A DNA stretch of 64,000 bases from IMG/VR virus record IMGVR_UViG_3300031453_000081. One strand, 5' to 3'. This DNA is from a virus. The notes beneath the pieces were generated by a model, which did no database searches, was not told where the DNA came from, and saw only the letters and a list, made by a program, of their open reading frames with translations. A program made the translations under genes and the position numbers. Positions 1,448-59,217 of this stretch are shown here, piece after piece (position 1 is the first letter of the stretch; every line of letters starts with the position of its first letter).

Positions 1448-1660
1448 ATGCCCATCATCGGAACCGACTCCCAGCTCGCCCTGGATGGCTTCGGCTACTT
1501 CATCGAGCCGCACTCCTACCAGGTCATCCGACCACGCGTCCGCCGCACCGATCTCCTCGGCCAGTCCGCCAACCCAGTCGCCCCAGGCGCCGGCTCAGGA
1601 GAACGCTACGTCGACCGCGGTCCCGCCAAGCGTGAGTGGAAGTTCATCATCGTGGCCTTC
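1448..1660 (+). pseudogene. 5' part (codons 1-71) of a split Dit/minor-tail-like gene of the outer element
   Basis: MPIIGTDSQ...KREWKFIIVAF ends exactly at the att core and joins in frame to NNLTTY... at 58990. Confidence 0.85.
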
Positions 1661-1683
1661 GACACCCTGTGGGCCATGAACTC
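1634..1683. other. Left hybrid attachment site (attB arm / TT core 1658-1659 / attP arm)
   Basis: ...ATCGTGGCC TT CGACACCCTGTGGGCCATGAA; the arm 1660-1683 is the inverted repeat of 58963-58986. Confidence 0.9.
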
Positions 1684-3116
1684 TGTTCCTCTGCCCGCTG
1701 GGTCAGAATGGCGCCCAGTCCGGGCAACGGACGCAACGCCACGACCTCCTGGTTGTCAATCAGCAGTTCGCGGAACACTCGCCGCACCAACCGATTCCGC
1801 GTCGCCTCGTCCTCAGCACGTTCGTACACCACCGCCAGGTTGGTGAGCATCTGGGCCAGCTCTCGCGCCTGGGAGCCGCCGGCGTGCGTGCGGAGTGCCT
1901 GCAACCGACCCTGGAGGTGGCGGACCTGGTTGCGGTACTGCAGCTCCGACATCTGGCCGTACTCAACGTAGACCGCCTCCAGCCGCTTCAGCTGCGCGGC
2001 GATCCGCGTCTGTTCGTCGCTGGTGTCGTGGGACTGATGCTCCGCGGCGGCGGCGTAGCGTTCGGCTAGTGCCTCGGTCAGGGAGTACGCGGCGAGCGCG
2101 TCGACCACCTGCTGCTCAATCCGGGCGCTGAACACCGAGACCTGCCGGCATTCGCCACCGTAGAGGCGGGTCGAGCAATGCAGACGCACCTGGCCGCGCT
2201 GCGTCTGGGTATGGAACCGGCCGCCACATTTTCCGCAGGTGCCGAGACCGGAGAGGATATGAACGGTGCCACGGCTAATCACGGCGGGGCCACGTCGGTT
2301 CTCATGGCCGGCTACCTGCGCCCGGTTGAACGTCTCCTGGTCAATCAGTGCCGCGTGGAGCCCGGGCAGCCACTGCGTCGCTCCCTGGCTGCTGTTGTTC
2401 CGCCCCACTCCGATCTGGCCGACGTAAAAGCGATTGTGCAGAATGCTGTGCAGCAGTCCCGGCCCCATGTCATGAACGCTGTGCTGGTGAAGCGTCGCCA
2501 TGGTCTGCCGACGGGGTGTGCCGGCTGCGGTGAGCGCGAACACCTCGAGCACCACATCCGCACGCGAGAGGGCGCCATACGCCGGCGTGTCGTCGAACAC
2601 CGGCGCCAGTCTCGATTTGTCGTCTCCCTCTTGCCGCCGATAGCCGTAGGGCAGCCGACCGGCCCACAGCCCCGCCTCTATCCGCTCCGTCTTCCCCTTC
2701 CGCGTCTCGACCGCCAGATTGCGGCTGAAAAATTGCGCCGATTGCGCCAGAATCCCGGCCACCAGCTCGCCGGTTGGTGTCGTGGGGTCGATGCCCTCCT
2801 TCACGAAAATCACGCGGTTGTTGAGCCGGTGCAGCACGTCGTGGAACACGCGAGCATTGCGGGCCAGGCGGTCCAACTTGTCCACGATGATGGCGTCGGC
2901 GCCGCCGGCGAGTACCATATCGATCGCGCGACGCAACTCCGGGCGTTTGGTGAGCGTGTCGCTGTAGGCGCTGCGACCCTCGTCCGCGCAGATGTCGATC
3001 AACTCGTGCCCCTGGTACTCGCAGTGGTGGCGGATTGCACGCCGCTGCCCATCCAGAGAGTAGTTGTCGATCTGCTGCTCGCTGCTCACTCGTACATAGC
3101 CCACCACCCGTGTCAT
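1647..3116 (-). CDS. int: Large serine recombinase (integrase), 489 aa in the prophage state
   Basis: GYVRVSS catalytic Ser, DKLDRLAR, recombinase domain (PYGY), zinc ribbon CGKCG...HCSTR, coiled coil. GAGGGGG RBS before ATG 3116. Stop codon is supplied by the flanking attB arm. Confidence 0.95.
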   Translation of the reverse strand: MTRVVGYVRVSSEQQIDNYSLDGQRRAIRHHCEYQGHELIDICADEGRSAYSDTLTKRPELRRAIDMVLAGGADAIIVDKLDRLARNARVFHDVLHRLNNRVIFVKEGIDPTTPTGELVAGILAQSAQFFSRNLAVETRKGKTERIEAGLWAGRLPYGYRRQEGDDKSRLAPVFDDTPAYGALSRADVVLEVFALTAAGTPRRQTMATLHQHSVHDMGPGLLHSILHNRFYVGQIGVGRNNSSQGATQWLPGLHAALIDQETFNRAQVAGHENRRGPAVISRGTVHILSGLGTCGKCGGRFHTQTQRGQVRLHCSTRLYGGECRQVSVFSARIEQQVVDALAAYSLTEALAERYAAAAEHQSHDTSDEQTRIAAQLKRLEAVYVEYGQMSELQYRNQVRHLQGRLQALRTHAGGSQARELAQMLTNLAVVYERAEDEATRNRLVRRVFRELLIDNQEVVALRPLPGLGAILTQRAEEQSSWPTGCRRPR

Positions 3117-3268
3117 GCATCCCCCCTCGTTCGTTTCGGCGCCTTGTCGCGCTGCATAATCTCGCGAACCAGCAGCGTCAGCTCCCACATCTCGCGATCT
3201 GCCTGCGGGTTGCCGGTGATCGCCGGTGGCTGCATTGTAGTGGTGGTGCGCTGCTCAAGCTGTGCCAT
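3113..3268 (-). CDS. Small protein (51 aa) coupled to the integrase; candidate recombination directionality factor
   Basis: MAQLEQRTTT...KAPKRTRGDA*; ATGA overlap with the int start; function inferred from position only. Confidence 0.5.
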   Translation of the reverse strand: MAQLEQRTTTTMQPPAITGNPQADREMWELTLLVREIMQRDKAPKRTRGDA

Positions 3269-3623
3269 GATCCTCGCCTCGCCGATCTACGTGCAGTTGC
3301 AGCAGCACCATTTCCAGCCGTCGCAGCCGATCCGTAACCCGCAACTCTCGTTCCCGCCTGGCGACCACTTCGGATGCATGGCGGTTCGCCCTGGACAGCG
3401 TTTGATACCGCTCGTCCTCTATCAGCCGGGCCACTAGCCATGCCAGCCGTTGCTTCTCGTTTGCCCCCTCCAGGCCACCCAGAATGTAGCGACCCTCGAT
3501 TTTCTCCTGTTCCTCTCGTCGCTCGACTATCCCCTGCTGGAAGAGATAAATCTGCATCTCGTTCGCTCCCGCCTGCGCAATGTGGGACCGGATGGACTGC
3601 TCGAGCTCGTCGGTGGTCGTCAT
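3255..3623 (-). CDS. Hypothetical helical protein (122 aa)
   Basis: ATG at 3623 overlaps the stop of the upstream ORF. Confidence 0.65.
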   Translation of the reverse strand: MTTTDELEQSIRSHIAQAGANEMQIYLFQQGIVERREEQEKIEGRYILGGLEGANEKQRLAWLVARLIEDERYQTLSRANRHASEVVARRERELRVTDRLRRLEMVLLQLHVDRRGEDHGTA

Positions 3624-3841
3624 GGCTGCACCAGCCTGGGCTGGGACTGTTCGCCGATCTCCTCGGCCAATTTCACCTGCTCGACAATCTGCTCGCACAC
3701 CAACTCCTGCACTCGCTGCTTGACCCTTGCAGGCCAGGCAGCTGGGTACACGACGCCAATGGTAATCGCGACCTCATCAAATGCCGCATTAACGATCTTA
3801 GAAACGGTTTTGCAGGTCTCTTTCGCGCTTGCAGTGGCCAT
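3620..3841 (-). CDS. Hypothetical protein (73 aa)
   Basis: GAGGGG RBS; coupled stop/start. Confidence 0.6.
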   Translation of the reverse strand: MATASAKETCKTVSKIVNAAFDEVAITIGVVYPAAWPARVKQRVQELVCEQIVEQVKLAEEIGEQSQPRLVQP

Positions 3842-3849
3842 ACTTCCCC

Positions 3850-4707
3850 TCACTCACTCAGCCGCGAGACGGCGGCGTGTTGTCTATCTGCTCGGTATGG
3901 CTCCGAGAATCCCACCAATTGGCAGTTCCCATCGTCGAATATGCGCGGCGTTAGCCGGGGCATCATGGTGTCCATGTCGTCAAAATCGAGGTTCGTGGTC
4001 ACCACGGTCGGCAGGCGATGCTCCAGGCGATGCTGGCAGATGGTGAACCGCTGCTCCTCAACCCATGCCGATGATTTTGCTTTGCCGAAATCGTCCAGGA
4101 TCAACAGCGGCGAATGGAGTAGCTCGGACAGCTGGCGGGTAAACGTCTGCTCACTGCCGGCGTCAAACGTCGAACGCAACTCGATCATCAGCACTGGCTC
4201 AACCCGGTAGAGTACGGGCTTTCGCGCTCCCAACCAGTAGTTGCCGAGCATTTTTGCCATCGACGTTTTCCCCGAGTGATAGACGCCGTACAGCCACATC
4301 CAGCCCCTCGGGCAGCCCCCAAACGTCTGCACCGCATCATACTGCGACGCTTGCGCCGCAGTCGGCCTGAACGACCCAAATGTCACATCGCCAAAATCTT
4401 CTAGGCCGCTCCCGCCGATCAGGTTCGCGTGCTGCCTCTGCTCGACTGCCATACCCATCGGGCATCGGGTGCAGGTTACCAGCTCCGGCGTGGGATCCTC
4501 GCCAGGGATCCAGCTTTGGGCGTAGACCAGGCCCGAGCCATGGCAGTGCGAGCAGGGAGTGGGCCGGTCGTCAGGGATAGCCGGGAGGCCGCCCGCCACA
4601 CGCTCCGCCATCCTCGATTCGGCCGCCTCGAACCGCGCTCGAACCGCAGCCGGCAGATTTGATTTGAACGACTCCAGCCCCCCGGAAATGTGCCGGAATC
4701 CGGTCAC
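3850..4707 (-). CDS. DnaC/IstB-like helicase-loader ATPase with N-terminal zinc finger
   Basis: CSHCHG...CTRC; Walker A GVYHSGKT; Walker B LLILDDFG; VVTTN; directly downstream of the initiator. Confidence 0.88.
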   Translation of the reverse strand: MTGFRHISGGLESFKSNLPAAVRARFEAAESRMAERVAGGLPAIPDDRPTPCSHCHGSGLVYAQSWIPGEDPTPELVTCTRCPMGMAVEQRQHANLIGGSGLEDFGDVTFGSFRPTAAQASQYDAVQTFGGCPRGWMWLYGVYHSGKTSMAKMLGNYWLGARKPVLYRVEPVLMIELRSTFDAGSEQTFTRQLSELLHSPLLILDDFGKAKSSAWVEEQRFTICQHRLEHRLPTVVTTNLDFDDMDTMMPRLTPRIFDDGNCQLVGFSEPYRADRQHAAVSRLSE

Positions 4708-5843
4708 GATGCCACCGCCGCGTCCATCTCCTCAGCGAGCCGGTCCAGCTCGTCACGATCTCGCCAGTACCGATCGCGTTGCTCCGAAGCCTTTGCCGTC
4801 GCCTCGCTATCACCTTGCTCCTCGGCGGCGACACGCCGCTCCTCCGCCCGGTTGCCTTGAGTGTGGGCATTATCTCCCAGCACCCGGGCGTATTTGGGCG
4901 CCGTGACCTGCCATCGATTGGGAATGATGCAGGGCTTCGGGACAATGGCGAGCGTCGGATGACCTCGCGCTGTATGCCGTTGCTCCAACGGAAACTTCGC
5001 TTGTCTCACCCAGCGATCAAACGTTGCCGCCGTCGCCGCCGTCAGTTGCCGATCCTGCCGGTGCTGCACGCATTTCCGAGCCTCGGCCACCAAATCCACG
5101 GCGGGATAGGCAGCCAGGAGCGCCAGCAGCGTCTGCTCTGTGACCGGAGGATTGCCCGACGGGAAGAGCGGTACCAGCGCGTCGAACGCTGCCCGGTCTT
5201 CGGTTGACAGAGTGACTTGAACTGTTTGTAACGTCGCCGCCGTCGTTGGTTTCTCGACGGGAGGTGGTTGAGGAGACTCCTCGCGTGCGCGCGCGACGTC
5301 GGCGTCGTTGACAGATGGTGAGGTGATTTCTTTAGAGACGGTATGGTTTCGGTACGGTTTCGGTACGGTTTCGGTTACGACGGACTCTGCGCGTTGTCCG
5401 TTGGACGTCCCCTGGACACTGCCTGATGTCTCACTGAGGTCCGGCAGACATTCCTTATATACGCCATTGTCACTTGGAGAGCTGCTGGCCTGACTCCGGT
5501 AGTCTCGTTTGCGTTCGGCGTCTGTCCGCCGACGCTCAATGAGTTTGCCGGCGTAATCGTACCAGTCATGCAGGCAGAGTGAGCCGTCCTCCGAGCGGTC
5601 TATGAATCCAGCGCTCACGATCGCGTCGGTGAACAACTGAGGATCACCGTCCCATTCCGCAGCTGCGGCCAGGTCGAACGCATCGTATCGGGATAGATCG
5701 CCCTGCTGGGCGTGATCGAGCCCGAAGTACCACAGCGCGTGGAGGTGGCCAACGGCGTGGACGCGCTGTATTCCGAGCAGGCGCGCCATTCGGCTCGTTT
5801 TTGGATGGTGCAGCAACGTCTGATTTGATTCAATCCACGCCAT
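4704..5843 (-). CDS. Phage replication initiator / replisome organiser
   Basis: N-terminus MAWIESNQTLLHHPKT...GHLHALW typical of phage initiators; low-complexity linker with internal repeats; sits before the loader. Confidence 0.75.
   Translation of the reverse strand: MAWIESNQTLLHHPKTSRMARLLGIQRVHAVGHLHALWYFGLDHAQQGDLSRYDAFDLAAAAEWDGDPQLFTDAIVSAGFIDRSEDGSLCLHDWYDYAGKLIERRRTDAERKRDYRSQASSSPSDNGVYKECLPDLSETSGSVQGTSNGQRAESVVTETVPKPYRNHTVSKEITSPSVNDADVARAREESPQPPPVEKPTTAATLQTVQVTLSTEDRAAFDALVPLFPSGNPPVTEQTLLALLAAYPAVDLVAEARKCVQHRQDRQLTAATAATFDRWVRQAKFPLEQRHTARGHPTLAIVPKPCIIPNRWQVTAPKYARVLGDNAHTQGNRAEERRVAAEEQGDSEATAKASEQRDRYWRDRDELDRLAEEMDAAVAS
5345..5377. repeat. Three tandem 11-bp repeats GGTTTCGGTAC in the initiator gene (candidate iterons)
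   Basis: 5345-5355, 5356-5366 and 5367-5377 (last copy ends TA). Confidence 0.45.
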
Positions 5844-5845
5844 GG

Positions 5846-6862
5846 CTACGCACTCCCCCGAGCGCGGTTGCCGCGCATCTCGTTGTAGGCGCGAGACAAA
5901 TCCGTGATTGTGTCGCTCGCCTCGGTGGTCGTTCGGTCGCAGTTCATGTCGATGTCCCGGCCGAGGAGCCTCGCGAGTTTTTCTATGGTTGCGAGCTGGT
6001 TGGCCGTCGCCGGTTTTTCGGTGGCCCCTGGGCCAGTCCGGGCCACGCCGTCCGCGACGTCGTCTGAGTCCTCGTCGTCAAGCGAGAACGTCATGGATTC
6101 CTGCGATTGCATCACCACGCCGTCTGTCCCGTTGCTGGAGGCAAACAGTGCCCCGTTTGCCTCCTCGATGATCTCCCCGGTCTCCGTGTCGACCGATCGC
6201 TGTGCTGGTAGGGTGGCGTCTGACGCAGGTAGCGCGTCGTAGTCGATCACGATGTCACCGGAGGGCGAAACCGTAACCGGCACGCCCATTTCCTCGGGCA
6301 GGTAGAGGCCGGCGATGGTGTCGGCAAAATAAACTCGCGCCCCCTCGGCCACAGCACGCCAGTAGAGCATCGCTCGCGGGTACTGGCTCCACGGTCCCGT
6401 TTTGTTGGCGAGTCCGGCTTTTTGCGCGTCCGCCATGGTCCACTGAAACCGGCATGGCTCCTGGCCGTCCCGTCGCATCTCCACGATTGCATGCTCGTTC
6501 GTGCGTTCAATCGGACGAATAGCGCCGGCGCCGTGCGCCGCCTGGATGATCGCCGTGAGTCCCTGGCTCTGCACCACGGGCTTCCCGTTGACGAGTCCAA
6601 TTTGCTCTAGGGAGTACATGGGGGATAGACCCAGTTCGTATCCCTTCATCACGACCGCCGCGATTTGATAGCGGTTTGTGATGCCCTTGGGCAGGATCCC
6701 GGTGCCTTTTCCGGCGGCCTCCAGGACCATGGACTGCTCCGAGATCATGCGCCAGGTCGCAAGCGTCATCTGTCGCGTTGCCCGTGACGGCGCCGCGAGC
6801 GGCGGCGAGACGTTGGTCAACTCCAGGGACGGCCTTTCTGCGAGTGCGGTTTGTTCAGCCAT
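5846..6862 (-). CDS. recT: RecT-family single-strand annealing protein (338 aa)
   Basis: GGAGGAG RBS; IGLVNGKP, WSQYPRAMLYWRA...R..FAD..AGLYLPEEM. Confidence 0.8.
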   Translation of the reverse strand: MAEQTALAERPSLELTNVSPPLAAPSRATRQMTLATWRMISEQSMVLEAAGKGTGILPKGITNRYQIAAVVMKGYELGLSPMYSLEQIGLVNGKPVVQSQGLTAIIQAAHGAGAIRPIERTNEHAIVEMRRDGQEPCRFQWTMADAQKAGLANKTGPWSQYPRAMLYWRAVAEGARVYFADTIAGLYLPEEMGVPVTVSPSGDIVIDYDALPASDATLPAQRSVDTETGEIIEEANGALFASSNGTDGVVMQSQESMTFSLDDEDSDDVADGVARTGPGATEKPATANQLATIEKLARLLGRDIDMNCDRTTTEASDTITDLSRAYNEMRGNRARGSA

Positions 6863-7175
6863 TGCTGCTCCTCCGGGATAACGCCGCCTGTGCGGCCAGA
6901 CGATCGCGAGGGGTGGCGGCCTGGAGCTGCGCTTCGAGCTGTGCGATTCGATCATCCTGCGCGAGTTCGATGCACTCCATGGCGCGAACGCATTCCTCGG
7001 CGATCCTAATGCGGGTGAGCATGGCGCGGAGAACGACCATCAGATCCGCTAGGGCGATGGAGTCCTGGTCAGCGAGGTGGGCGAGAGCCATATCGATCTC
7101 CGGAATTGTGTAGGGAGGCGTGGGGAGCGGCTGCGGGGAATCGGCGGTAACGACGTGCAGCACGGCGGGGCTCAT
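6855..7175 (-). CDS. Hypothetical coiled-coil protein (106 aa)
   Basis: Overlapping start/stop with neighbours. Confidence 0.6.
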   Translation of the reverse strand: MSPAVLHVVTADSPQPLPTPPYTIPEIDMALAHLADQDSIALADLMVVLRAMLTRIRIAEECVRAMECIELAQDDRIAQLEAQLQAATPRDRLAAQAALSRRSSNG

Positions 7176-7342
7176 GACGCCACCACCTGAAGCGCCAGAT
7201 AGAGGATGAATCCCCAGAATGCCGCCAGTGCCAGGACCACCGTGATCCATAGCGAAACGACAATCCACCGCGTGCGTCCGGGCGCGTCGAGCCGGGTCAG
7301 GACGACGTGATGTGTGTGCAGGCGTCCGATAACAGCTTTCAT
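7172..7342 (-). CDS. Small membrane protein (56 aa, MKAVIGRL...WITVVLALAAFWGFILYLALQVVAS)
   Basis: GGAGG RBS; long hydrophobic segment; translated by hand. Confidence 0.55.
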   Translation of the reverse strand: MKAVIGRLHTHHVVLTRLDAPGRTRWIVVSLWITVVLALAAFWGFILYLALQVVAS

Positions 7343-7463
7343 GACGATTGACGACCTCCGTTGATGTAAAATGCGATACGGGCAGCATTTTTGCAGGTGC
7401 GACTCGTGGCTTGACTCAGGCCCTGGAGCTGACGCTCTGGGGCCTTCTCTTATTTCAGGCGGT

Positions 7464-7502
7464 GGAAAGGCGCGCCGTGATTGGAGAACGGCGCGCCTTT
7501 CC
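7464..7502. terminator. 15-bp perfect inverted repeat, terminator-like
   Basis: GGAAAGGCGCGCCGT-9 nt-ACGGCGCGCCTTTCC; short T tails. Confidence 0.55.
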
Positions 7503-7514
7503 TGTTACCCGCTC

Positions 7515-7838
7515 CTAGCGTTTCCCCGGCTCTCGCTCCGGACGGTGCTCGGGTCGATGTTCCGGGCGCTCCGTCGGTCGTTCCGCCGGGCGATGCTCAG
7601 GGTGCTCTGGGGACTGTTCCGGCCGCCGCTCTGGCGTGTGCTCGGGGCGTCCAGCGGGCTGCCGTGTGCCGGGAACGTGCGGTGGCGCATGTTCTGGCGC
7701 ATGCTCGGGCGCATGCTCGGGCGCGTGCTCGGGACTGTGACCGGGCGGGTGCTCATGCACATGCTCCGGCCGGTGGTCCTGTTTCTCGCGGGATTTGTGG
7801 TCCGGGTGATACTCCGGGTTCTGGTTCACGCCTTCCAT
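7515..7838 (-). CDS. Pro/Glu/His (PEH)-repeat low-complexity protein
   Basis: AAAGGA RBS before ATG 7838 (alternative GTG 7934); PEHA/RPEH repeats. Confidence 0.55.
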   Translation of the reverse strand: MEGVNQNPEYHPDHKSREKQDHRPEHVHEHPPGHSPEHAPEHAPEHAPEHAPPHVPGTRQPAGRPEHTPERRPEQSPEHPEHRPAERPTERPEHRPEHRPEREPGKR

Positions 7839-16865: not shown

Positions 16866-17117
16866 CAAAACTCGTGTGAAATGGCGGTGCCTTTGTAGGC
16901 GCTGCTCGTTGGCTATCGGGCAGTACGGGGTAGCTCCCGTCTGGGTATTACTCCCAGCGCCTTTCACTCTGCCCCGGCGGGTTGCCTTCCGGCCTGCCGG
17001 GGCGCCTCCTGCGATAGTTCAATGAGCGTTCAATTACCGCCTTATTCCGCGCGGAATATAGGGAATGGGAATCGTCATTTACAGCACTTGGGGTGTGTTT
17101 CCGAAAGCTGGGCGGTC

Positions 17118-18077
17118 ATGGACAACCTCGCGATCATTGCCGCCGATCAACTGCCGGCCAATCGAACGCCGGCGGATCGAAACCCCGTTCTGATTTATCT
17201 CGCCCGGCTCGCCCCAGGCAGCCGGCGCACACAATCCCAGGCGCTCCGTGTGATCGCGACGATGGCCCACCCTGGCGCCGATCCGCTCACCTTTCCTTGG
17301 CAGGCTCTGGACTATCAGCACACCAGCGCTATCCGGTCGCAGCTCGCCGCCCGGTATGCGCCGGCGACGGCCAACAAAATGCTGTCCGCTCTACGCGGCG
17401 TTCTGACTGAGTGCCGCCGCCTGCAATTGATGCCTGCAGATCAATGTGAACGCGCTCGCGACGTCGCCGTCGTACGCGGCACTCGACTCCCAAAAGGACG
17501 TGCCCTTGGAACCGCAGAACTCACCGCCCTTTTCGCCACCTGCGTCGAGCCGACGCCAGCGAACCTCCGAGACGCCGCGTTGTTGTCCACCTTATACAGT
17601 GGAGGACTCCGGCGTGCTGAGGCCGTGGCGCTGGACGTTGCCGACTATAACGTCGGGGAGCAGTCCATCGCCATCCGAGCCGGCAAGGGAAACAAGGGAC
17701 GAGTCGTGTATCTCTCCGACAGCGCCGCCGTCAAGCTCGGAGCATGGCTCTGGCGTTGCACATCCGGGTCCGCCGTATCCGGTAGCACCGCTCCGGCGCT
17801 GTTTGTTCGAATCCGCCGAGGCGGGCACATCACCGCCGACCGGCTGACCGATCAGGCGGTGCGGTACATCCTGCTGCAACGCTGTGAACAGGCGGGCATC
17901 GCCGCCGCGGCGCCGCATGACATGAGACGTACGATGATCTCGCACCTGCTCGACGCCGGCATTGACATCAGCACGGTTCAGCAGATCGCCGGCCACAGTA
18001 GCGTGACGACCACCCAACGGTACGACCGCCGCGGTGAGGGACGGAAAAAGCGTGCGGCGCAGGCGTTGAACCTGTGA
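17118..18077 (+). CDS. Tyrosine recombinase (XerC/D-like, 319 aa)
   Basis: R (GLRRAE), K (GKGNK), HDMRR, GH, Y (TTQRY) catalytic set intact. Confidence 0.92.
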   Translation: MDNLAIIAADQLPANRTPADRNPVLIYLARLAPGSRRTQSQALRVIATMAHPGADPLTFPWQALDYQHTSAIRSQLAARYAPATANKMLSALRGVLTECRRLQLMPADQCERARDVAVVRGTRLPKGRALGTAELTALFATCVEPTPANLRDAALLSTLYSGGLRRAEAVALDVADYNVGEQSIAIRAGKGNKGRVVYLSDSAAVKLGAWLWRCTSGSAVSGSTAPALFVRIRRGGHITADRLTDQAVRYILLQRCEQAGIAAAAPHDMRRTMISHLLDAGIDISTVQQIAGHSSVTTTQRYDRRGEGRKKRAAQALNL

Positions 18078-18091: not shown

Positions 18092-18562
18092 ATGGCGGAA
18101 AATGGCGGAAAATGGCAGGCAAACCGGCGACAGCAGGCGTTAATCGACCGTTTGAGTCGATCACCGTATATCACTGTCTCTGAAGCAGCTCGAGAACTCG
18201 GCATTCCAATCGACACAGCCGGAAAATGGCACTGCCTCCCCGAGTTTCGATCCGCGCTAGAGAATCAGCGTCGAACCGAGGGTGACCAAACCCGGCTCGA
18301 GCTCGAGGCGCGGATACTGGCCCAGGGACAGGCGGCAATCGCCGCCAAGATTGAGAATCTTGCTGCTAGCAGTGAACACGTGCGACACCTCGAGTCGTCG
18401 TACATCCTCGATCGCATCCTGGGCAAACCGACCGAACGCAGTGAGCAGGCGCATACCGTCGACGCGCGGGTGAACATCGTGGCAGAAATTGACGCATTGC
18501 TCAACCGGCCCATCGAGGTGCGTCATGTCCCCGACACCAGCGACTCTGGCGAGTCGCCCTGA
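18092..18562 (+). CDS. terS: Terminase small subunit (HTH)
   Basis: N-terminal HTH (VSEAARELGIPIDTAGKW), LDRILGKP; directly upstream of TerL. Confidence 0.75.
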   Translation: MAENGGKWQANRRQQALIDRLSRSPYITVSEAARELGIPIDTAGKWHCLPEFRSALENQRRTEGDQTRLELEARILAQGQAAIAAKIENLAASSEHVRHLESSYILDRILGKPTERSEQAHTVDARVNIVAEIDALLNRPIEVRHVPDTSDSGESP

Positions 18563-44153: not shown

Positions 44154-46628
44154 ATGGCAGCAGTCGGACAGTTAGTTGACAATGTTAATATCCCCGCCGA
44201 TCCGTTCTCGCCAGATGTCACCCACCACCTCTGCACGTTTAGCGACGGCGCGAAGCTGCTGGTGTACTCGCGAACCACCGGAACCTACTACGCGCTGAGG
44301 AACAGTAGCGGCGTGTGGCAGGCTCCGGTCTCGTTGCTGACCAGTCCGCTGTCCAGCTACGACTCCAACACCATCGCCCAGAACGGCAACACCGTAGCCG
44401 TGTGGTATTCGCAGGGATCGGTTATCAGCAAGACCAACCTGTCGTATGCCTCTGGAGCAGTGTCCGCCACTGTCAACTCCACAACGCAACCGCAAATCAC
44501 ACGAATCACCGCACTCGATGCGGCATGGAGTTCAACCAACGCCTACTGGCTGCTGTTAACATTCCAACCCGGCGGCACCAGCTCCATCACCCTCTATTCG
44601 GCCCCAGACACACTATCTGGGTTGACCTATCTGGGTAGCGCATACACCGGCGGGTCAACCATTCTCCGGGCACATGTTGCACTGGCGTCGCCAACCAGCA
44701 CCACCCAGTACATCACCGTTGCCGATCCCACCGCGGGGCGGATCACGCTGTACTCAAACAACATTGGCGCATCGTTCGGTACCGCCGAAACCGCCTACCA
44801 CACCAGCTGTGAACACACCGTCGAGTTCGATGTCAACGGCAACCTCGATTTGCTGATCTACGACCCGGCAGTCAACGCGCTGCTTGATGTCAAACGCACC
44901 GGGACCGCGACCTACGCCGCCGCCGTCACGCTCTACAGCGCCCCGGCCATCGGGACGTCCATCCCCGCCACTGCCTACAACAATTCGACCGGCGCGCTCT
45001 CCGTGTTTTTCGAGACGGCGGCGAACCAACCCAACGATGAACTTTACATAGCGCAACAAGTTAGTGGCCGTTGGAGCACGGCGACCCTCGCAGTAGGCGG
45101 TGATGCCAGCGGCTATCACGCCGCCACCACCGGGCGTTACGTCGACGGCGTCAACCGTGATATCGTCTACGTCTACGGAACCGCTGCGCCCTACGCGATC
45201 TACCATTTTCAACTCGGCACCGGATCAGCCCCCAACACCCCGGTGATGACCTCCCCGACGGCGGGCAACGGCGGGAGCACCAGCCCGGCATCGTCTTTTA
45301 ACTATTCCAACCCGATTCCCGGCGACCTGCAGGGTGCCTACGAGCTGCTCTATACCCGATCATCGGACAACGTGGTCATGTGGGATAGCGGCTGGGTTGC
45401 AAGTAGCGCATCAAGTGGCATCGCCTACGCTGGTACCACACTCGTCTACGGCATTCAGTATCAGGCCCAGGTCCGGGTCAAAGATGCGCAACTCGGTAGC
45501 GCCTCAGCGTACAGCACCGCCGTGGTGTTCACGGCGACCCGGCCGGGTGTGGCCACCATCACGAATGTGCTCGATAACGGCGTCAATGTGGTGGCAGGCG
45601 GCGACATCACATCCGCTATCGCCACGCTGACCTACTCCTGGTCGCAGCCCGACGGCAACACGAATGTGTCCTACCAAGAGTTGCTGTATGCGGATGACGG
45701 CGTGACACTCGTCAATAGTCTGGGGACTGCCACGTTTATCAATCCAGTTGCCAGCGGCTCCAGCATCACGCTCGGCACATTCACCATTACCGATGGGGCA
45801 ACCCCGCCTATCACGAACCTCACCTACTACCGTTTCCAGATTCGCGCCACCGACTCTCAGGGCGGGGTCACCCTCTCGCCACAATATCGTGTACGCACCA
45901 ACTGGACACCGCCGGGAACGCCCTACGACATCGGCATCAGCCCGAACCCCAACACCGGCGTGGTCACCGTCTCGTGGGTCAACGCCTCCGGCGTCAGCAG
46001 CATCAACGTGTTTACGCGTCCCACCGGGACGGCAACGTGGCAGCAACTCCCATTACCCAACCCGCTCGCCACCAGCATCCATGTGTTCCCACCCCCGGGC
46101 ATCCCCTACGATTACGGGTTTCAGAGCGTCGGCAGTACCGGGATTCTGTCCGGTATTGCTATCGAACGGGCAGTTACCCTGCCGCTCAAACTCGGCTACT
46201 ACACGGCATGGCTCAGAGACACCACGGCGCCGCTCACCGCCGCCGTGCCGTTGGGCATCCCCGGTCAGGCGCTCTCCTCCAACGCCTGGACCCAGGCCGA
46301 GGATAAATCCAGTTTCGTGCCCCAGGGCCTCTCCAAACCCAAAACCGACTACGGCCCCACCAACTGGCACATGCTCAAGGGTGCAAAGTACCTGATCTTC
46401 GCCCAGGACGGCCATGGGCCTAGTCTCGTCACAGCCCCCTCGATCATCGCTATCCTGCAGGCTATGTACGCCACACGGAACACACTCCAGTACTGCGACA
46501 ACGAGGGGCGGTCGTACTTTGTGCGACTCGGCAACTTCTCAACGCCACTAGCCGACGATGCAATCAACCATCTGGCGACCTTTGACCTAGAGGAAACCAT
46601 TACGCCCTTGACGATCCTGATCGCCTGA
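44154..46628 (+). CDS. Minor tail protein with beta-propeller/Fn3-like domains and Dit-like C-terminus
   Basis: Directly after TMP; APNTPVMTSP, YQAQVRVKD, PPGTP Fn3 signatures. Confidence 0.7.
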   Translation: MAAVGQLVDNVNIPADPFSPDVTHHLCTFSDGAKLLVYSRTTGTYYALRNSSGVWQAPVSLLTSPLSSYDSNTIAQNGNTVAVWYSQGSVISKTNLSYASGAVSATVNSTTQPQITRITALDAAWSSTNAYWLLLTFQPGGTSSITLYSAPDTLSGLTYLGSAYTGGSTILRAHVALASPTSTTQYITVADPTAGRITLYSNNIGASFGTAETAYHTSCEHTVEFDVNGNLDLLIYDPAVNALLDVKRTGTATYAAAVTLYSAPAIGTSIPATAYNNSTGALSVFFETAANQPNDELYIAQQVSGRWSTATLAVGGDASGYHAATTGRYVDGVNRDIVYVYGTAAPYAIYHFQLGTGSAPNTPVMTSPTAGNGGSTSPASSFNYSNPIPGDLQGAYELLYTRSSDNVVMWDSGWVASSASSGIAYAGTTLVYGIQYQAQVRVKDAQLGSASAYSTAVVFTATRPGVATITNVLDNGVNVVAGGDITSAIATLTYSWSQPDGNTNVSYQELLYADDGVTLVNSLGTATFINPVASGSSITLGTFTITDGATPPITNLTYYRFQIRATDSQGGVTLSPQYRVRTNWTPPGTPYDIGISPNPNTGVVTVSWVNASGVSSINVFTRPTGTATWQQLPLPNPLATSIHVFPPPGIPYDYGFQSVGSTGILSGIAIERAVTLPLKLGYYTAWLRDTTAPLTAAVPLGIPGQALSSNAWTQAEDKSSFVPQGLSKPKTDYGPTNWHMLKGAKYLIFAQDGHGPSLVTAPSIIAILQAMYATRNTLQYCDNEGRSYFVRLGNFSTPLADDAINHLATFDLEETITPLTILIA

Positions 46629-46662
46629 ATCTGTCCAACGGCGGTTTCGACTGGAGCAGCCT

Positions 46663-47949
46663 ATGCAGAGCACAACCATACCGGCTGCGCACAATCCGGC
46701 CAACTACTCGCCGCAGCAGGTGATCGATACCATTAACCGGATGAGTGGCAGCGCACACCCCACCACACGCTATGCCGTGCTGGATGAACGAACGCAGCAG
46801 CCGGTCGTATTGCCCTCGCCCCTGCTGGTCGATACAGGCAAAATCACCAACGACACCACGCAGAATACGCACCGATCGCTGGCCATCACGCTGCTCGAAC
46901 CTGTAGGGCTCAACACACTCCAGCACCTCATTCAGCCCTGGTTCGGCTTCAACGATAACGCGGGGAATCTCCTGTTTGAAGTACCGCTCGGAGTTTTCCG
47001 CCCGGTGCTGCCGGATCGTCTACTCCAGGACTCTCAGAACATCTGGACCATTGCCGGGCTGGACCGAACCGTTGATATCACCATCATCCCCTTTGCAAAC
47101 GACTATGCCATTCCCTCGGGCAACAATGTGATCGGGGCGGTAGTAGCCATGATGATGATGGACCAAAACCCTCGCAGTGAGGCCGGCGCACGGCAGCCAA
47201 TCTCCTCGCCCTACGTCTGGCCGGACGCCAACAACCCCGGCATGACCCCCAGCGGCCTGGACGATGAAGGGCCGAACTTCCCGGCCGCGCGTATCCGAGC
47301 CACACCCACCACCTTCACCACTATCGGCCCGGTGATCGGCACCCGGCAAGATAAAAAGTCGGACATCGCCAATACCATGTTGGACACCATCTCCTACTAT
47401 CCGCTCTGGGTCGATGAGGGAGGATCACTGAGGCTTCAGCCCAAACCGTACTACAACGGTAGTACGCCGGCAGTCGAGTGGACCTATGCCACCGACGCCA
47501 CCTCCATTATCCGGCCGGGCGTGCAGCAGCAACTCTCCAATCAGGCGGACCTGGTGAACTGCGTGGGCCTGGAGTGCGCGCCCAGCGGCGGCCCAGTGAT
47601 CTACTCCGAGCAGAAAAATCACTCCACCGACTCCGCCATCAGTATCCCCAATCGGGGTAAAACCGTCCGGCGCAATCTCCAGAACAACCTAATCGCGACC
47701 CAGGCGCAAGCTGACCTAGCCGCCTACATCGCGCTCGTCGAGTTTGCACTGCAAACCGATACTGTCTCCTGGTCAACCGCCATCAACCCACTGCATCAGA
47801 GTCACGACATCGTGGCCCTCAATGTCCGCAACCGAGACGGGAAACCAGAAATATCGAGTTCGGCACATCCCTACATTATGATCTCCCATTCATGGGATCT
47901 GAACACCTACGTCCAAACCAATGTGGCCGGCAGGCTGGTGCTGGTCTAG
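46663..47949 (+). CDS. Tail tip hub (Tal-like) protein
   Basis: EVPLGVF, LWVDEGG.LRLQP, N.VG, STAINPLH motifs; position. Confidence 0.65.
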   Translation: MQSTTIPAAHNPANYSPQQVIDTINRMSGSAHPTTRYAVLDERTQQPVVLPSPLLVDTGKITNDTTQNTHRSLAITLLEPVGLNTLQHLIQPWFGFNDNAGNLLFEVPLGVFRPVLPDRLLQDSQNIWTIAGLDRTVDITIIPFANDYAIPSGNNVIGAVVAMMMMDQNPRSEAGARQPISSPYVWPDANNPGMTPSGLDDEGPNFPAARIRATPTTFTTIGPVIGTRQDKKSDIANTMLDTISYYPLWVDEGGSLRLQPKPYYNGSTPAVEWTYATDATSIIRPGVQQQLSNQADLVNCVGLECAPSGGPVIYSEQKNHSTDSAISIPNRGKTVRRNLQNNLIATQAQADLAAYIALVEFALQTDTVSWSTAINPLHQSHDIVALNVRNRDGKPEISSSAHPYIMISHSWDLNTYVQTNVAGRLVLV

Positions 47950-50627: not shown

Positions 50628-51899
50628 ATGCATCGTATCCGTCTACTCACGCGCCTCGTCTGGAACACGCTCAACCCGTTTAACCATCGCGCCGGTGGCG
50701 CCGCGCCGCTCACTCTGTTGACTGCGATCATCCTCGTTATCGGCAAGGTGATCGTCCTGGCTGGCGCGATCACCGCCGGCATTCTGATCGACCATCACCT
50801 CAACCACGAGACCGCAGGCGGCGGCGCCGTGAATCCCGCACAACAGGCGCCGCTCCCAACGGTCCGTATCTCTGGCGGCAGCTCGCCGGCGACATGGAGC
50901 CTCGATGGGTATGTGGTACGAGTCCACAACCAAGGCGACTCCTCGTCCTGCGTCGGACAAACGCTGGCCACCATCGAGGAGATCACCAACGCCGAACGCG
51001 GCCGGCGCATCTCGTTTAGTTCGGGCTTCATCTGGAACGCGCTCAACGGGGGCATCAACCAGGGATTGACGTATCAGTCTGCGTTTGATTTCCTCCAGAA
51101 CTACGGCGATGCCCCGCTGTGGGCCGACCCAAACGACGGTCTGAACTACCAGGCCGGGTATGGCGTCCCCGCCGCCGCCTACGCCCAGGCCGCGCCCTAC
51201 CGCGCCACTGGATGGCACGCACTCTACAACTGGGACCAGAACACGATGCGGGCCTACATCTCCAGTGGGATCCCGATCGCCTTCACTATCCACGTGTTCG
51301 ATTCGTTCTACCAGCAGTGGGGTGTCGGGTACGTGCCCTCGTTCACGAGTCAGTACGGCTACGCCCACTTCTGGCACTCCATGACCATCATCGCCTACGA
51401 TCCGACGGGCGTGACTGGCCTCAACTCGTGGGGCGGCGGTCCGTATGGTTGGGGCGGGAACGGTCGGTTCCATATGACCTGGCAGTTCCTGGTCGACAAC
51501 GGCGCCTACATCGTGGCCCCAGACCTACCGCTCAAGCCGTATTTCCATCGGGTCATCACCCACCCGAAGCCGCGGCATGTTGTGTTCCCAGCAAAACTCT
51601 GGAACGCCTACACCACCGGCCATCACCAGCGAGCGATTCCCTACCGCTCCCACGGCCGGCTCACCTACGCCGCCACACTCTGGGTGCGACACGGACCCAA
51701 ACGAGCGGGCGCAATCACCCACACCGAGACCTGGCACCCGGCCGGAAGGCACGGCGTCGACGGGTACGAGCAAGACACGTTCCGCTACCAGCAACTGTAC
51801 TTCTCGCCGGGTCGTCCCAAGTGGGCGGTGAAGTGGGCCGGGTATGCAGTGCATCATACGGCTCGCCACAAGACCGCCAAACACAGGAGCCACCATTGA
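50628..51899 (+). CDS. Membrane-anchored papain-family (C1A) cysteine peptidase
   Basis: TM near N-terminus; QGDSSSC (Gln, Cys), WHSMTIIAY (His), NSWG (Asn). Confidence 0.88.
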   Translation: MHRIRLLTRLVWNTLNPFNHRAGGAAPLTLLTAIILVIGKVIVLAGAITAGILIDHHLNHETAGGGAVNPAQQAPLPTVRISGGSSPATWSLDGYVVRVHNQGDSSSCVGQTLATIEEITNAERGRRISFSSGFIWNALNGGINQGLTYQSAFDFLQNYGDAPLWADPNDGLNYQAGYGVPAAAYAQAAPYRATGWHALYNWDQNTMRAYISSGIPIAFTIHVFDSFYQQWGVGYVPSFTSQYGYAHFWHSMTIIAYDPTGVTGLNSWGGGPYGWGGNGRFHMTWQFLVDNGAYIVAPDLPLKPYFHRVITHPKPRHVVFPAKLWNAYTTGHHQRAIPYRSHGRLTYAATLWVRHGPKRAGAITHTETWHPAGRHGVDGYEQDTFRYQQLYFSPGRPKWAVKWAGYAVHHTARHKTAKHRSHH

Positions 51900-54682: not shown

Positions 54683-54713
54683 GCGCTATCCTCCGTTCCA
54701 ACTCATTCATCAC

Positions 54714-55304: not shown

Positions 55305-55509
55305 GCCCGCTCCTCTCGACATCCCGCTCATCCAACGCTGTGAGTAACGGCTCAAGCTCGCTCCACACGTCGAACAGGCACTCCTCACAGAGCAGGAAGC
55401 TAGCAACTCCGTACAGTTGGAGTTCATTTATGGACCGGCAGTTTCTACACACCCCATAATCGCGAGCGTGGGCAGCAATCCTATCCACGCCGGTCAGGTG
55501 CAGGCTCAT
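55291..55509 (-). CDS. Small zinc-finger protein
   Basis: CRNC...CEEC. Confidence 0.55.
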   Translation of the reverse strand: MSLHLTGVDRIAAHARDYGVCRNCRSINELQLYGVASFLLCEECLFDVWSELEPLLTALDERDVERSGHELR

Positions 55510-55706
55510 GGCTCCTCCGATGGCACTGGCTCCGCTGTCTCAATGGATATCGCTAGGCCATGCAGCGGGCAATTCTCGTTGAAAACATAGGAGCTTTCTC
55601 CGGCTATCTGCACGTAGCCCCGCCCATAGTGGTTATCCATAACCGGACAGAGACAGCCGAGACGCACCGCCTCGTCACTGCCCGGTGGCGGCGTGTCCGT
55701 GGTCAT
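55506..55706 (-). CDS. Small Cys/His phage protein (66 aa)
   Basis: PGSDEA..GCLCPVMDN..G.G...CPLHG motif recognised from other phages. Confidence 0.6.
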   Translation of the reverse strand: MTTDTPPPGSDEAVRLGCLCPVMDNHYGRGYVQIAGESSYVFNENCPLHGLAISIETAEPVPSEEP

Positions 55707-55871
55707 GGCTTCATGAGCCAGGCCGCCATGAGCAACAGCACCGAGATCGTCAGAACCACACGGCACCGGCTTTATAGTCCGCCAGTGAAGCCGCCGCGCC
55801 CGCCATGCCTATGGCAACCCCGAACACAAATAGGATTTGAGAGCCAACCATCCACCCTCTGTCGTCAATTT

Positions 55872-56981: not shown

Positions 56982-57522
56982 AGATTCTTCTCTCCGCCCT
57001 TCTGCTGAAAACGGTCATTCTCGCTCCTTACTTTCCCGTCAATAGCAACTGCTGTATATCCGCGACCCCATTCCGTTGCGCCGCTTCGTAGACCATCGTG
57101 CTGTGCTCCCCCGACCACCGACCCATCCTGCAGCATCAGGTAGGGCAGCATCTCACGAGCAAATCCTTCGGTGGCTTCAGCCCTGCTCTTCTCGCTATCG
57201 TCCAGCCCCTCGACTGTTGCGATGATTTTCGCCTTCAGCAGATAGACGAGCACACGCCAACGACGCTGGCGTTCCAACGTTGCCAGAGCCTGCACCTGCG
57301 CATCCGTGCGGTGGTCCCGACGCGAAAACTCTCCGGGTCCGGCTGCTCGATGGCAAATGAGTACCAGCGGGCGCCGATCTCGGCCATCAGCTGATACGAC
57401 GTGTCCGACTCGTGCGTGCTGAACCGAACTGCGCCGGCCTGTTTAAGCAACTGACGCATCTCAGCAACAGACTGACTGACTTCGACGGACGTGTTCTCGG
57501 CGTAGCGGCGTTTCTTCGCCAT
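56978..57522 (-). pseudogene. Conserved phage hypothetical gene split by a -1 frameshift at 57325-57328 (~181 aa if fused)
   Basis: YAENTSV..S.AE N-half and RQRRWR.L..LLKAK...LPY.ML.DG C-half are in different frames; AGT TTT CGC vs TCG. Confidence 0.65.
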
Positions 57523-57761
57523 TACTCATGCTCCCCCGTCTTTTCGGGGGTCGCGCCCCACTCCTGTTCCGCCGCCAGAATATCCCGCGTCTCCCGTAGC
57601 ATTCGCAGCGCATGGTCCAGTTGCTCGATATGGCACTCAATCAACACCTGCGTCGCTGGACTCTGGGTCACCACATGCCGGTCGCAGTACTCGGCATGGA
57701 GGGCTTCGGTCCGGTCGATCACGTCATCAACAACCAGAGACAACGGACGGGAGGAGATCAT
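57522..57761 (-). CDS. Hypothetical helical protein (79 aa), homologue of 60489-60764
   Basis: LHAEYCDRH...QVLIECHIEQLDHA...E..D.L.AE..W. Confidence 0.65.
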   Translation of the reverse strand: MISSRPLSLVVDDVIDRTEALHAEYCDRHVVTQSPATQVLIECHIEQLDHALRMLRETRDILAAEQEWGATPEKTGEHE

Positions 57762-58198
57762 GAAACAACCACATTGGTCTTGAGTGCTGCGATAATCACC
57801 GGCCAATCCCAGCCCGGTTGCGCGTCGGTACGCTCGCCAAGGGCATTCAGCAGTTCACCGGTCTGGACAGCGTCGAGTTCTCTGGTCTTGACGATGGAGA
57901 AGCCATGCTTGCGCAGGTACCGCCAGGTGGCTAACCGCGCGTCGTCGGTCGACATCGTCGCGGACTCTGTCGCAACGGCAGATGCCGATTTCTTCGACAG
58001 TCGGACCGCCTTCAGCCGTTCCCCTCCCACAAGCGCCTGGAATCGTTTCGGTTCCGCTTCAATCTCGGCCACGGTCGGGTCCAGCATCGCCGCCAGCGCC
58101 TCCAGTCCAGCCTGGCGCACACTATCCCGCCCGGCATTGGACAGCGGAACATTACGCGGCGCGTCAGGGTCGGGCAGTAATTCTTCCTGGCGGTTCAT
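57758..58198 (-). CDS. Hypothetical protein (146 aa)
   Basis: Coupled; starts MNRQEELLPDPD. Confidence 0.6.
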   Translation of the reverse strand: MNRQEELLPDPDAPRNVPLSNAGRDSVRQAGLEALAAMLDPTVAEIEAEPKRFQALVGGERLKAVRLSKKSASAVATESATMSTDDARLATWRYLRKHGFSIVKTRELDAVQTGELLNALGERTDAQPGWDWPVIIAALKTNVVVS

Positions 58199-58421
58199 GT
58201 CGTCACACTTGATCCCGCTGTATGGATAGGCGAGTGCCCACACTCGCCGTCGTTCTCCCAACAGGCGAAGCAGAGATGGCCACCACAGCGCCAGCAGCGC
58301 TCATATTGGTCTTCTGGGATAGCAATGCCGCACCGGCCACAGTAGTCAATCGTCACCGTGGTCATCTGAGAAGCGGGCGGCGAGTCAGGGTCGGGCAGTA
58401 ATTCTTCCTGGCGGTTCATGT
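58163..58421. repeat. 38-bp perfect direct repeat (58163-58200 and 58384-58421)
   Basis: GTCAGGGTCGGGCAGTAATTCTTCCTGGCGGTTCATGT twice. Confidence 0.95.
58195..58419 (-). CDS. Small zinc-finger protein (74 aa)
   Basis: GAGAGGAGG RBS; CGRC...CWRC...CFAC...CGH; starts MNRQEELLPDPD. Confidence 0.65.
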   Translation of the reverse strand: MNRQEELLPDPDSPPASQMTTVTIDYCGRCGIAIPEDQYERCWRCGGHLCFACWENDGECGHSPIHTAGSSVTT

Positions 58422-58733
58422 TGACGCCTCCTCTCGTTGTTTCGCCGTCATGACGGGGCTTTCCAGTACACTCGAATCCTGATCAAGCGGGAATATCAGC
58501 ACGCCATCGACCGCATGCCAAACATCCGACAAGCGCTCAATCACCGACTCGATCCGGGTCTGGCATCTCCGCACCTCTAGATAGAGCCAGCGGGACTCTC
58601 TGGCAGCGTCCGCATGCCCAAGCCCTGCCAGACGATCCGCCATGGCGTTGAGGTTGTCCATCGCGCAATACTGATCGCCTAGAAAGTCGGCAGCCTCTTT
58701 GCAATACAGATACTCATAGCTGCCGCCGCTCAC
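58416..58733 (-). CDS. Conserved phage hypothetical protein (105 aa)
   Basis: MSGGSYEYL...MADRLAGLG..DAARE...LSDVWHAV; GTGA overlap with the upstream stop. Confidence 0.65.
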   Translation of the reverse strand: MSGGSYEYLYCKEAADFLGDQYCAMDNLNAMADRLAGLGHADAARESRWLYLEVRRCQTRIESVIERLSDVWHAVDGVLIFPLDQDSSVLESPVMTAKQREEAST

Positions 58734-58987
58734 AACTGCACCGCCTGTTCCTCGTAGCGTTTCAGCACGGCACGAAGCGCGCTCTCCGACACATGCCACT
58801 CTGCCGCCAACGCCCGCGCCGGCGTACCCGCCGCCCGCTCTCGTGCAATCTGCGGCCAGAACGCGACCGGGATTTTCGGGAATGTGCGTTGCCCGGTCCC
58901 GGTGATTGGCACCGCCCACCACCCGTCGGCGAGTGGTTTCAGATAGGGCGCAACGACATCACGACTTCGTGGCTCACAGTCCGACGT
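58730..58987 (-). CDS. Detached C-terminal segment (85 aa, HTH) of the integrase; in frame with int across attP
   Basis: No stop between 58987 and 58733; KIP..WPQIAR..AAG.PARALAAEWHVSESALRAVL HTH. Confidence 0.8.
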   Translation of the reverse strand, partial: TSDCEPRSRDVVAPYLKPLADGWWAVPITGTGQRTFPKIPVAFWPQIARERAAGTPARALAAEWHVSESALRAVLKRYEEQAVQL

Positions 58988-59010
58988 TCAACAATCTCAC
59001 CACCTACACC
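58963..59010. other. Right hybrid attachment site (attP arm / TT core 58987-58988 / attB arm)
   Basis: TTCGTGGCTCACAGTCCGACG TT CAACAATCTC. The rebuilt attP is symmetric at 17/24 positions around TT (12/14 at positions 8-21). Confidence 0.9.
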
Positions 59011-59217
59011 GGCACCGTCGAGACCGCCAGCGGCGAGCAGCTGCACGACCAGCTCCAGACCTCATACAACAAGGTGAACGTCACCATCCCCTTCATCGAC
59101 CCCAACAACACCACCTGGAACGTCCACTTCGATGACATGGTCGAGGAGCTGGTAGACGTGCGATCTCAGGTCGACGGCCTCCAGTGGTATATACACTGCA
59201 CCCTCTACGAAGGCTAG
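58987..59217 (+). pseudogene. 3' part of the split Dit/minor-tail-like gene (FNNLTTY...IHCTLYEG*)
   Basis: No RBS or start of its own; in frame with 1448-1660; the join is a 146-aa ORF. Confidence 0.85.

Follow-up and report, generated by a model that had tools for sequence, protein, structure and literature searches.

Why would a temperate phage cut a virion gene of another phage-derived element in two, and what becomes of that element while the phage stays in place? This question is raised by IMG/VR virus record IMGVR_UViG_3300031453_000081, from which we analyzed a stretch of 64,000 nucleotides (nt; hereafter the window, to which all coordinates refer). Positions 1661-58989 form an insert, the inner phage, which interrupts a gene for a protein of 146 amino acids (aa), the split gene; the phage-derived genes that flank the insert are referred to as the outer set. 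An earlier note on this DNA had proposed that a prophage sits in, and reversibly splits, a Dit-like tail gene of a competing resident element. Our analysis favors, as the probable explanation, a temperate siphovirus integrated by a large serine recombinase (LSR) into a conserved, likely domesticated phage gene set of rock-community Chloroflexota. Throughout, L-numbers denote related contigs, P-numbers homologous proteins and G-numbers sampled Chloroflexota genomes, and sequence families were assigned with Pfam and PHROGs.

The insertion lies exactly between codons 71 and 72 of the split gene. As the earlier note had stated, removing positions 1661-58989 rebuilds a 146-aa open reading frame (ORF), with 1448-1660 (+) joined to 58990-59217 (+) without a frame error, and this join is read across by intact homologues. 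When 5.8 billion proteins were searched with this gene's N half, six intact metagenome proteins of 146 or 147 aa (P0001-P0006) emerged, which are 83-100% identical to that half and all read ...KFI[IV]VAF/NNLTTYTG... over the predicted join (the slash marking the cut). Compared with P0001, the N half shows a synonymous divergence (dS) of 0.24 and a nonsynonymous divergence (dN) of 0. The uninterrupted gene is likewise present on the empty-site contigs L001-L005, L008 and L009. In the integrated state, reading through from the N half into phage DNA gives a chimeric ORF of 132 aa (1448-1846), and the ORF that holds the C half (58906-59217) begins with 28 codons of phage origin in the same frame; P0009 is an attR-type fragment of the same kind as this C-half ORF.

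The attachment (att) sites could be placed almost to the base pair. The empty-site contig L005, about 90% identical in DNA, aligns to 1043-1664 and to 58987-59760, and the two alignments overlap by 7 bp, TTC[G/A]ACA. We set the crossover at the TT because these alignments overlap there and because the predicted attP is an imperfect inverted repeat centered on this TT, as is typical of LSRs, with 17 of 24 arm positions matching as opposed to 5-8 of 24 at neighboring registers. This position is 1-2 bp off the junction proposed by the earlier note. The same TT is found in attB, the junction overlap amounts to just 3-7 bp, there is no target duplication, and the rebuilt attB is identical to four empty sites in relatives at 50-54 of 56 positions. 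No tRNA gene was found at any junction examined.

The recombinase itself lies at the end of the insert and carries resolvase catalytic (motif VRVSSEQQ), recombinase and zinc-ribbon domains. Together with the LSR-type att sites and a complete phage gene content, this bears out the proposal that the insert is a serine-integrase prophage. The stop codon of the LSR gene lies in host DNA, 12-14 bp past the junction, and the last three residues of the protein are host-encoded. attP thus falls inside the integrase gene, and in the circular form a longer protein of 595 aa with an extra helix-turn-helix (HTH) C-terminus is predicted (1647-3188 (-) plus 58729-58989). No relatives of this LSR were found in IMG/VR, and JGI metagenome contigs yielded only proteins 25-28% identical to it.

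We then asked what kind of protein is interrupted. Neither gene half had a match in Pfam or PHROGs, and a profile search of 1.84 billion representatives identified only 48 family relatives. An AlphaFold model computed from 26 family members (pLDDT 81, pTM 0.73) comprises a single 146-aa domain, made up of a beta-sandwich, one helix and a long hairpin. Foldseek searches of PDB, BFVD and Swiss-Prot with this model returned tail-tube-fold proteins as every significant match (probability 1.00, E 1e-4 to 1e-2, TM ~0.5). The fold matches comprise the baseplate hub N-domains of phages Milano, 7-7-1 and Mu, the diffocin baseplate chains 8v3w_G/T (136-138 aa), SPP1 Dit (2x8k, E 0.03), lambda gpV and gpM, FluMu gpN, PBSX XkdP, 'Dit-like N-terminal domain' proteins and haloviral tube proteins. 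Judged by the model, the split gene encodes a protein of the tail-tube superfamily, and its fold matches members of this superfamily only (tube, initiator, Dit N-domain, gp27-like hub, Hcp). The Dit-like assignment made earlier therefore stands as far as the tail-tube fold is concerned, at superfamily level, but does not extend to membership in the Dit family: a C-terminal galectin/OB-like domain and a match to a Pfam Dit family are both absent, the likeness is limited to the N-domain fold, and no tape measure, next to which (and to Tal) a Dit gene would be expected, was recognised in the outer set among the family matches. Because the modeled protein has a single domain, no Dit C-domain and no Pfam match, it may equally possibly serve as a tube protein, a tube initiator or a hub adaptor (adaptor ring).

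Within this fold, the cut coincides with the end of strand 64-71 and leaves four beta-strands of the single domain on the N side, so that neither half would be expected to fold alone. The ratio dN/dS ranges from 0.10 to 0.44 in the family and is 0.095 between the split copy in the window and its closest intact relative (L005), with zero nonsynonymous changes in the N half; by this measure, the split copy has not decayed.

Some members of the family differ in architecture. P0007 and P0011 contain three tandem tube-fold domains in one chain, an arrangement unusual for tube proteins, while P0010 and P0017 have 100-aa loop inserts, one of which resembles a repeat in the window's 383-aa protein (61906-63057). 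P0046 (L042:333-977, on a 2.5-kb contig) is a 214-aa ORF in which a transposase-like N-terminus, recognized by eye, is followed by family residues ~64-146, and is possibly another insertion within the tube-fold family. P0028, considered as an attR fragment, turned out to be uninformative, as pieces of RNase HII and RNA polymerase, but no recombinase, share its 3-kb contig.

The genes on both sides of the insert are phage-derived, as had been claimed, because they include tail proteins, a holin and a C1 peptidase and because relatives carry, 2.5 kb upstream, a 696-aa fusion of prohead protease and major capsid protein (Phage_capsid_4 / Mu gpT type). Apart from the split gene, all outer genes in the window are intact, three upstream and seven downstream, and are 49-95% identical to those of relatives, in which host genes (cobW) follow to the right. 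Full-length homologues of the joined protein, a tail fold and phage-derived flanks, the three findings on which the earlier note had staked its case, were thus all obtained.

To find out to which class of element these genes belong, we sampled 401 Chloroflexota species evenly. The split-gene family had a match in 63 species, ~52 of them strong and uninterrupted, nearly always as one copy or two adjacent ones, and no copy in this sample carried a large insert. The capsid family occurs once per genome, 3-10 kb from the split-gene homologue on the same contig. An orthologue of the large terminase subunit TerL (Terminase_6C) is present as a single copy in 136 of the 401 species and is 48-65% identical among the genomes compared; Terminase_6N, TerL_ATPase and Terminase_3 had no match in five genomes. 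Altogether, the outer set is single-copy in about 13-34% of the sampled species and, to judge by the dN/dS of the split-gene family (below 0.45), under purifying selection.

The spacing of its parts varies between groups. In one genome group (for example, G144), TerL, portal, capsid and split-gene homologue lie within ~10 kb, while TerL is 20-76 kb from the split-gene homologue in other genomes and ~390-460 kb away in G076, G273 and G112, a distance that is conserved; in the two genomes examined for this, the distant TerL has the same HEAT-repeat gene as its neighbor. As for the portal, G148 has it on a different contig and G076 in inverted orientation, and neither portal nor TerL was found within the contigs of the window's own clade. 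ORF inspection of complete regions in G139, G076 and G148 revealed no integrase adjoining the outer set. Its tail genes are few, with neither tape measure nor sheath recognised. Because it is single-copy, under purifying selection and dispersed in a conserved manner, we interpret the outer set as a domesticated gene set resembling gene transfer agents (GTAs), an assignment that appears reasonably likely from gene content and arrangement. The earlier suggestion of a competing resident prophage is not supported by this result, as the outer set does not look like an active rival.

Mobile elements have entered this gene set repeatedly, and at least four different sites in it are used by at least five different elements. 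The very TT of the tube-fold gene is occupied on L007, which carries a mosaic relative of the inner phage with an identical P-arm and an attR junction, and on L057, a contig that ends in attL and encodes an integrase 93% identical to the window's LSR. Contigs L047-L049, from three samples, carry at the same TT a different island with a different arm, joined to ...F/NNLTTY.... This island (L047:1-10093) comprises a Multi_ubiq and ThiF/E1-like pair, an M78 peptidase, an IS630 transposase, a TPR protein and a PIN/DUF433 pair; its recombinase is not included in the three contigs.

Further sites lie in the head genes. Near residue 403 of the capsid gene, LSRs that are 51% identical to the window's LSR abut capsid residues 11-403 on the opposite strand (L058:859-2674 and L059:533-3248), with a Replic_Relax gene beside the LSR on L058, and the outer-set portal and small ORFs upstream on L059. 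As in the inner phage, the 3' end of these two integrase genes overlaps the junction. Near residue 598, 289 bp from the 3' end of the capsid gene adjoin a tyrosine-integrase element (L002:5386-6930; Int, HTH_17, Replic_Relax, DUF8128), and the same fragment is found behind an unannotated 394-aa gene on L008 (102-1801). The fragment is 96.5% identical between the L002 and L008 lineages and the flanks are only ~80% identical, as if the tyrosine-integrase element were carrying and spreading the 3' end of the capsid gene. Finally, TerL is split near residue 180 in G139 (C1:4458537-4480676; L033/L034/L045) by a 20.6-kb element bearing a 769-aa LSR, a T4 coupling protein, a relaxase, DUF6414 + AAA and a CHAT-NACHT-TPR protein. 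In this genome, the N part of TerL directly follows the split-gene homologue, and the C part is located 20.6 kb farther on.

These data suggest the following course of events. The LSR would integrate the ~57.3-kb phage at a short attB within the coding sequence of the tube-fold gene, and excision would restore the ORF letter for letter, because LSR recombination is conservative with a 2-bp crossover, as known for SPbeta SprA/SprB (PMC5499854). In the lysogen, the tube-fold protein would not be made, because the cut follows the fourth beta-strand of a single-domain fold, and the 300-aa protein, the holin, the peptidase and two tail proteins would be cut off by 57 kb from upstream transcription. 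With the tube-fold protein lost and the downstream genes separated, the outer particle system would thus probably be off in lysogens. A promoter consensus scan showed no outward plus-strand promoter-like site at attR and none at attL, which is weak evidence either way; the genes at the right end of the inner phage point the opposite way to the outer set. As for the choice of site, the attB may have been selected mainly as a conserved, single-copy, growth-dispensable and hence safe landing pad common to the LSR clade, with the silencing of a host-lysing particle system as a possible added benefit to the inserted element. Such a safe harbor is more likely, as a general reason for the site, than a coupling of the two virion productions. 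Going further, one might suppose that a clade of LSR elements, comprising phages, a defense island and mobilisable elements, has specialised in Chloroflexota on the tube, capsid and terminase genes of a GTA-like, host-owned particle system, acting as removable off-switches for its lytic particles, a speculation that we regard as doubtful.

Several observations weigh against a domesticated particle system that the inner phage disables and could leave again. Production of particles by the outer set has never been observed; that it is vertically inherited is presumed from its copy number and from the conserved distances between its genes, and no head module, portal or terminase of the outer set is seen within the 64 kb of the window. 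Among close relatives, L004 lacks the head module and L002 and L008 have an interrupted one, and the capsid gene of G083 is spread over several frames, losses that fit decay as well as domestication. As to the inner phage, the integrated LSR is without its last 85 residues, which could impair or alter excision, and no recombination directionality factor (RDF) was identified in it, with no dedicated RDF search run. A same-strain empty attB was not found among the public contigs aligned to window positions 1-4000, and an exact 28-mer over the predicted attP of the excised form had no match in metagenome or viral contigs. A related-strain contig of 255 bp (X8) matches 1466-1668 and then diverges, which is compatible with an empty site.

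The losses just described are what one would expect if the phage had inserted neutrally into a decaying cryptic prophage, the outer cluster being a dead remnant and the split without consequence. Stops in a few genomes and the frameshifted family members P0035, P0043 and P0044 point in the same direction, and in the prophage-in-prophage case known from Escherichia coli all host prophages are defective (PMC8112680). We nevertheless consider this explanation unlikely, in view of the low dN/dS of the family, the intact outer genes in the window and the conservation of a single-copy outer set over ~50-136 of the 401 species with a conserved long-range arrangement: a dead remnant would not remain intact over such divergence. 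Appreciably less probable still is the regulatory switch put forward in the earlier note, in which the prophage holds a competitor's tail assembly off, excision restores the gene and the production of both particles is coupled, in the manner of active lysogeny. The precision of the split, an LSR mechanism that permits exact restoration, the position of the insertion upstream of the outer holin and peptidase, the peptidase and 91-aa protein families common to both elements and the precedents of SPbeta in spsM and skin in sigK (PMC4191935, PMC5499854) would all suit such a switch. However, no evidence for excision, an RDF or regulation was found, the outer set looks host-owned instead of competing, the same TT is used by the non-phage island of L047-L049, and other outer-set genes are used by conjugative or mobilisable LSR elements without virions (G139, L058). 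Because elements that make no virions use the outer set too, virion coupling would not be the general reason for the choice of site.

An assembly chimera, that is, a phage contig misjoined to host DNA, is hardly credible, even though the source is a metagenome and the related contig L004 switches context abruptly. The two junctions coincide in the TT, and joining them yields a known ORF, one independent Logan contig covers window positions 1-4000 with zero differences, and L007 and L057, from other runs, show the same junctions. The attL stretch was recovered at 100% of sampled words in five public rock-metagenome runs, which may be the source samples; the likely source run spans the attL junction, and the remaining runs matching positions 1-4000 contributed short pieces only. 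We thus return to integration of a temperate siphovirus into a probably domesticated gene set as the favored reading of the locus, whose features are compiled in Table 1.

Table 1. Features of the inner phage, the split gene and the outer set in the window
Feature	Position	Strand	Evidence or remark
GDSL/SGNH-type tail protein, C-terminal 342 of ~396 aa	1-1029	+	Outer set; phrog_15881; runs off window start
Two small ORFs, 84 and 49 aa (second likely a membrane protein)	1044-1444	+	Outer set; synteny
Split gene, N half (residues 1-71)	1448-1660	+	Ends ...REWKFIIVAF; 100% aa identity to P0001
attL crossover TT	1658-1659		Shared core TTC, then G/A, then ACA; center of attP inverted repeat
LSR, 513 aa when integrated	1647-3188	-	PF00239 3e-27, PF07508 6e-6, PF13408 5e-9; phrog_95 1e-81
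Inner phage, ~57.3-kb siphovirus-type temperate prophage	1661-58989		Gene content in this table
DnaC-like loader	3850-4707	-	Inner phage
Replication initiator	4704-5843	-	Inner phage
RecT	5846-6955	-	Inner phage
TerL	18489-19874		Inner phage
Portal	19884-21611		Inner phage
Major capsid protein	24999-26429		Inner phage
Tape measure, 2555 aa	36483-44150		Inner phage
Tail proteins	44154-47949		Inner phage
C1 (papain-type) peptidase	50628-51899		Inner phage
attR crossover TT	58987-58988		P-arm identical in independent lysogen L007
Split gene, C half (residues 72-146)	58990-59217	+	Starts NNLTTYTG; 92% aa identity to P0001
300-aa His/Pro/Lys/Ala-rich low-complexity protein	59221-60123	+	Outer set; synteny L001-L009, partial similarity; homologues 225-264 aa
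Holin	60133-60492	+	Outer set; phrog_1299, 4e-17
91-aa and 132-aa proteins	60489-61152	+	Outer set; synteny; 63-89% aa identity in L001, L007, L008
C1 papain-family peptidase, likely lysis enzyme	61134-62111	+	Outer set; PF00112 7e-8, phrog_16701; intact in L001, L007, L008
383-aa structural protein (p361 family)	61906-63057	+	Outer set; G139 homologue: phrog_511 'internal virion protein'
Tail/hub-like protein, N-terminal 230 of ~652 aa	63309-63998	+	Outer set; runs off window end; 49-52% aa identity

The gene content of the inner phage, with replication, packaging, head and tail functions, indicates a complete siphovirus-type temperate phage. A 351-aa tyrosine-recombinase-like gene (17022-18077 (+); phrog_1, 1e-38) is located directly upstream of its TerL. 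The C1 peptidase of the inner phage is 47% identical in aa to that of the outer set. A second family in common is that of the outer 91-aa protein (60489-60764), whose paralogue in the inner phage (57546-57749 (-), within 57522-57806) is 38% identical to it; the occurrence of both families in the two elements suggests that they draw on a common Chloroflexota phage gene pool.

For the partial and less conspicuous genes of the outer set, relatives provided the context. The full-length homologue of the GDSL-type protein (L001:8353-9543) matches PF13472 and phrog_15881, and the window copy is 94% identical in aa to that of L005. Syntenic genes of 82-84 and 41-50 aa accompany it in L001-L005, L008 and L009. 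No Pfam or PHROG match was obtained for the 300-aa low-complexity protein. The p361 family adjoins the split-gene homologue in other Chloroflexota, and the L001 homologue of the ~652-aa protein at the window end matches the phrog_177 baseplate hub and the phrog_1887 tail protein. The peptidase and 383-aa ORFs overlap by ~200 nt (61906-62111) in different frames, and full-length alignments of both are conserved in L001, L007 and L008.

Two relatives depart from this organization. G083, the closest GTDB genome (L031/L032, C3:511192-513000), has its capsid gene in four pieces, of which the last 121 residues are 93% identical to L001 and the N part 47-54%; this may reflect a pseudogene or a metagenome-assembled genome of low quality. 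From position 7709 rightward, L004 and L001 are 99.9% identical, and on the left (1-7709) housekeeping genes of L004 (DEAD helicase, IF-1, nitroreductase) replace the capsid module, the result of either a recent deletion or rearrangement or of a chimeric Logan contig.

How does this locus compare with known systems? The genes known to be split by LSR prophages are mainly sporulation genes of Firmicutes, for example spsM (by SPbeta) and sigK (by skin) in Bacillus subtilis (PMC4191935, PMC5499854, PMC5025042), and the element in gerE, gin, is another that splits and restores a gene. SPbeta and skin resemble the window in that an LSR element resides inside a coding sequence, shares a tiny att core with it and has its integrase at the element end. 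Their excision rebuilds the ORF exactly, is developmentally programmed and has been shown experimentally, with the RDF known, whereas for the window restoration is a prediction. Moreover, SPbeta and skin split host sporulation genes, while the prophage in the window splits a virion-type gene in Chloroflexota.

Phage-in-phage arrangements have in turn been described from captured att sites in E. coli, and with attB in a structural gene and phage-type genes on both sides, the window, too, presents a prophage within a phage-derived element. In Shiga toxin-producing and enteropathogenic E. coli (STEC/EPEC), the attB sites used by lambdoid phages lie close to the ends of prophages, on fragments captured from the chromosome (Nakamura et al. 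2021; PMC8112680). Both cases have attB on a resident, non-infectious phage-derived element. However, no split virion gene is reported for E. coli (the words 'tail' and 'disrupt' are absent from the text of PMC8112680), whereas in the window and its relatives attB lies inside structural genes, LSRs are involved and several unrelated elements share the habit.

The outer set itself is comparable to GTAs of the RcGTA type (PMC11841831, PMC5721377), with which it shares head, tail and lysis genes without adjacent integrase or replication genes seen, as well as its single-copy state, its conservation over many species and the scattering of parts in the chromosome. It differs from them in its fusion of protease and major capsid protein and its few tail genes, and no particle, packaging or regulator is known for it. 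The searchable literature yielded neither an account of a GTA or tailocin from Chloroflexota nor one of an LSR family targeting several genes of such a particle system. Should the outer set form particles, their production by a cell would be in the hands of resident mobile elements, a matter that bears on the control and loss of GTA-like systems; the off-switch reading, if true, would mean that mobile elements and domesticated viruses are in conflict at a further, new level. The locus also supplies natural attB/attP pairs for LSRs together with an integrase truncated by integration, and thus offers a new system in which to test how the directionality of LSRs is controlled.

For an integrase gene that is itself altered by integration, a parallel is offered by mycobacteriophages such as BPs and Brujita, in which immunity depends on integration, a tyrosine integrase is used and attP lies inside the repressor gene, so that integration alters the C-terminus of a phage protein. 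The inner phage likewise has attP in a phage gene, but the gene cut is that of the integrase (595 versus 513 aa). Compared with the known gene-splitting and prophage-in-prophage cases, what is new is that virion genes of a probably domesticated Chloroflexota particle system serve as att sites, and that several genes of this system are used by related LSRs.

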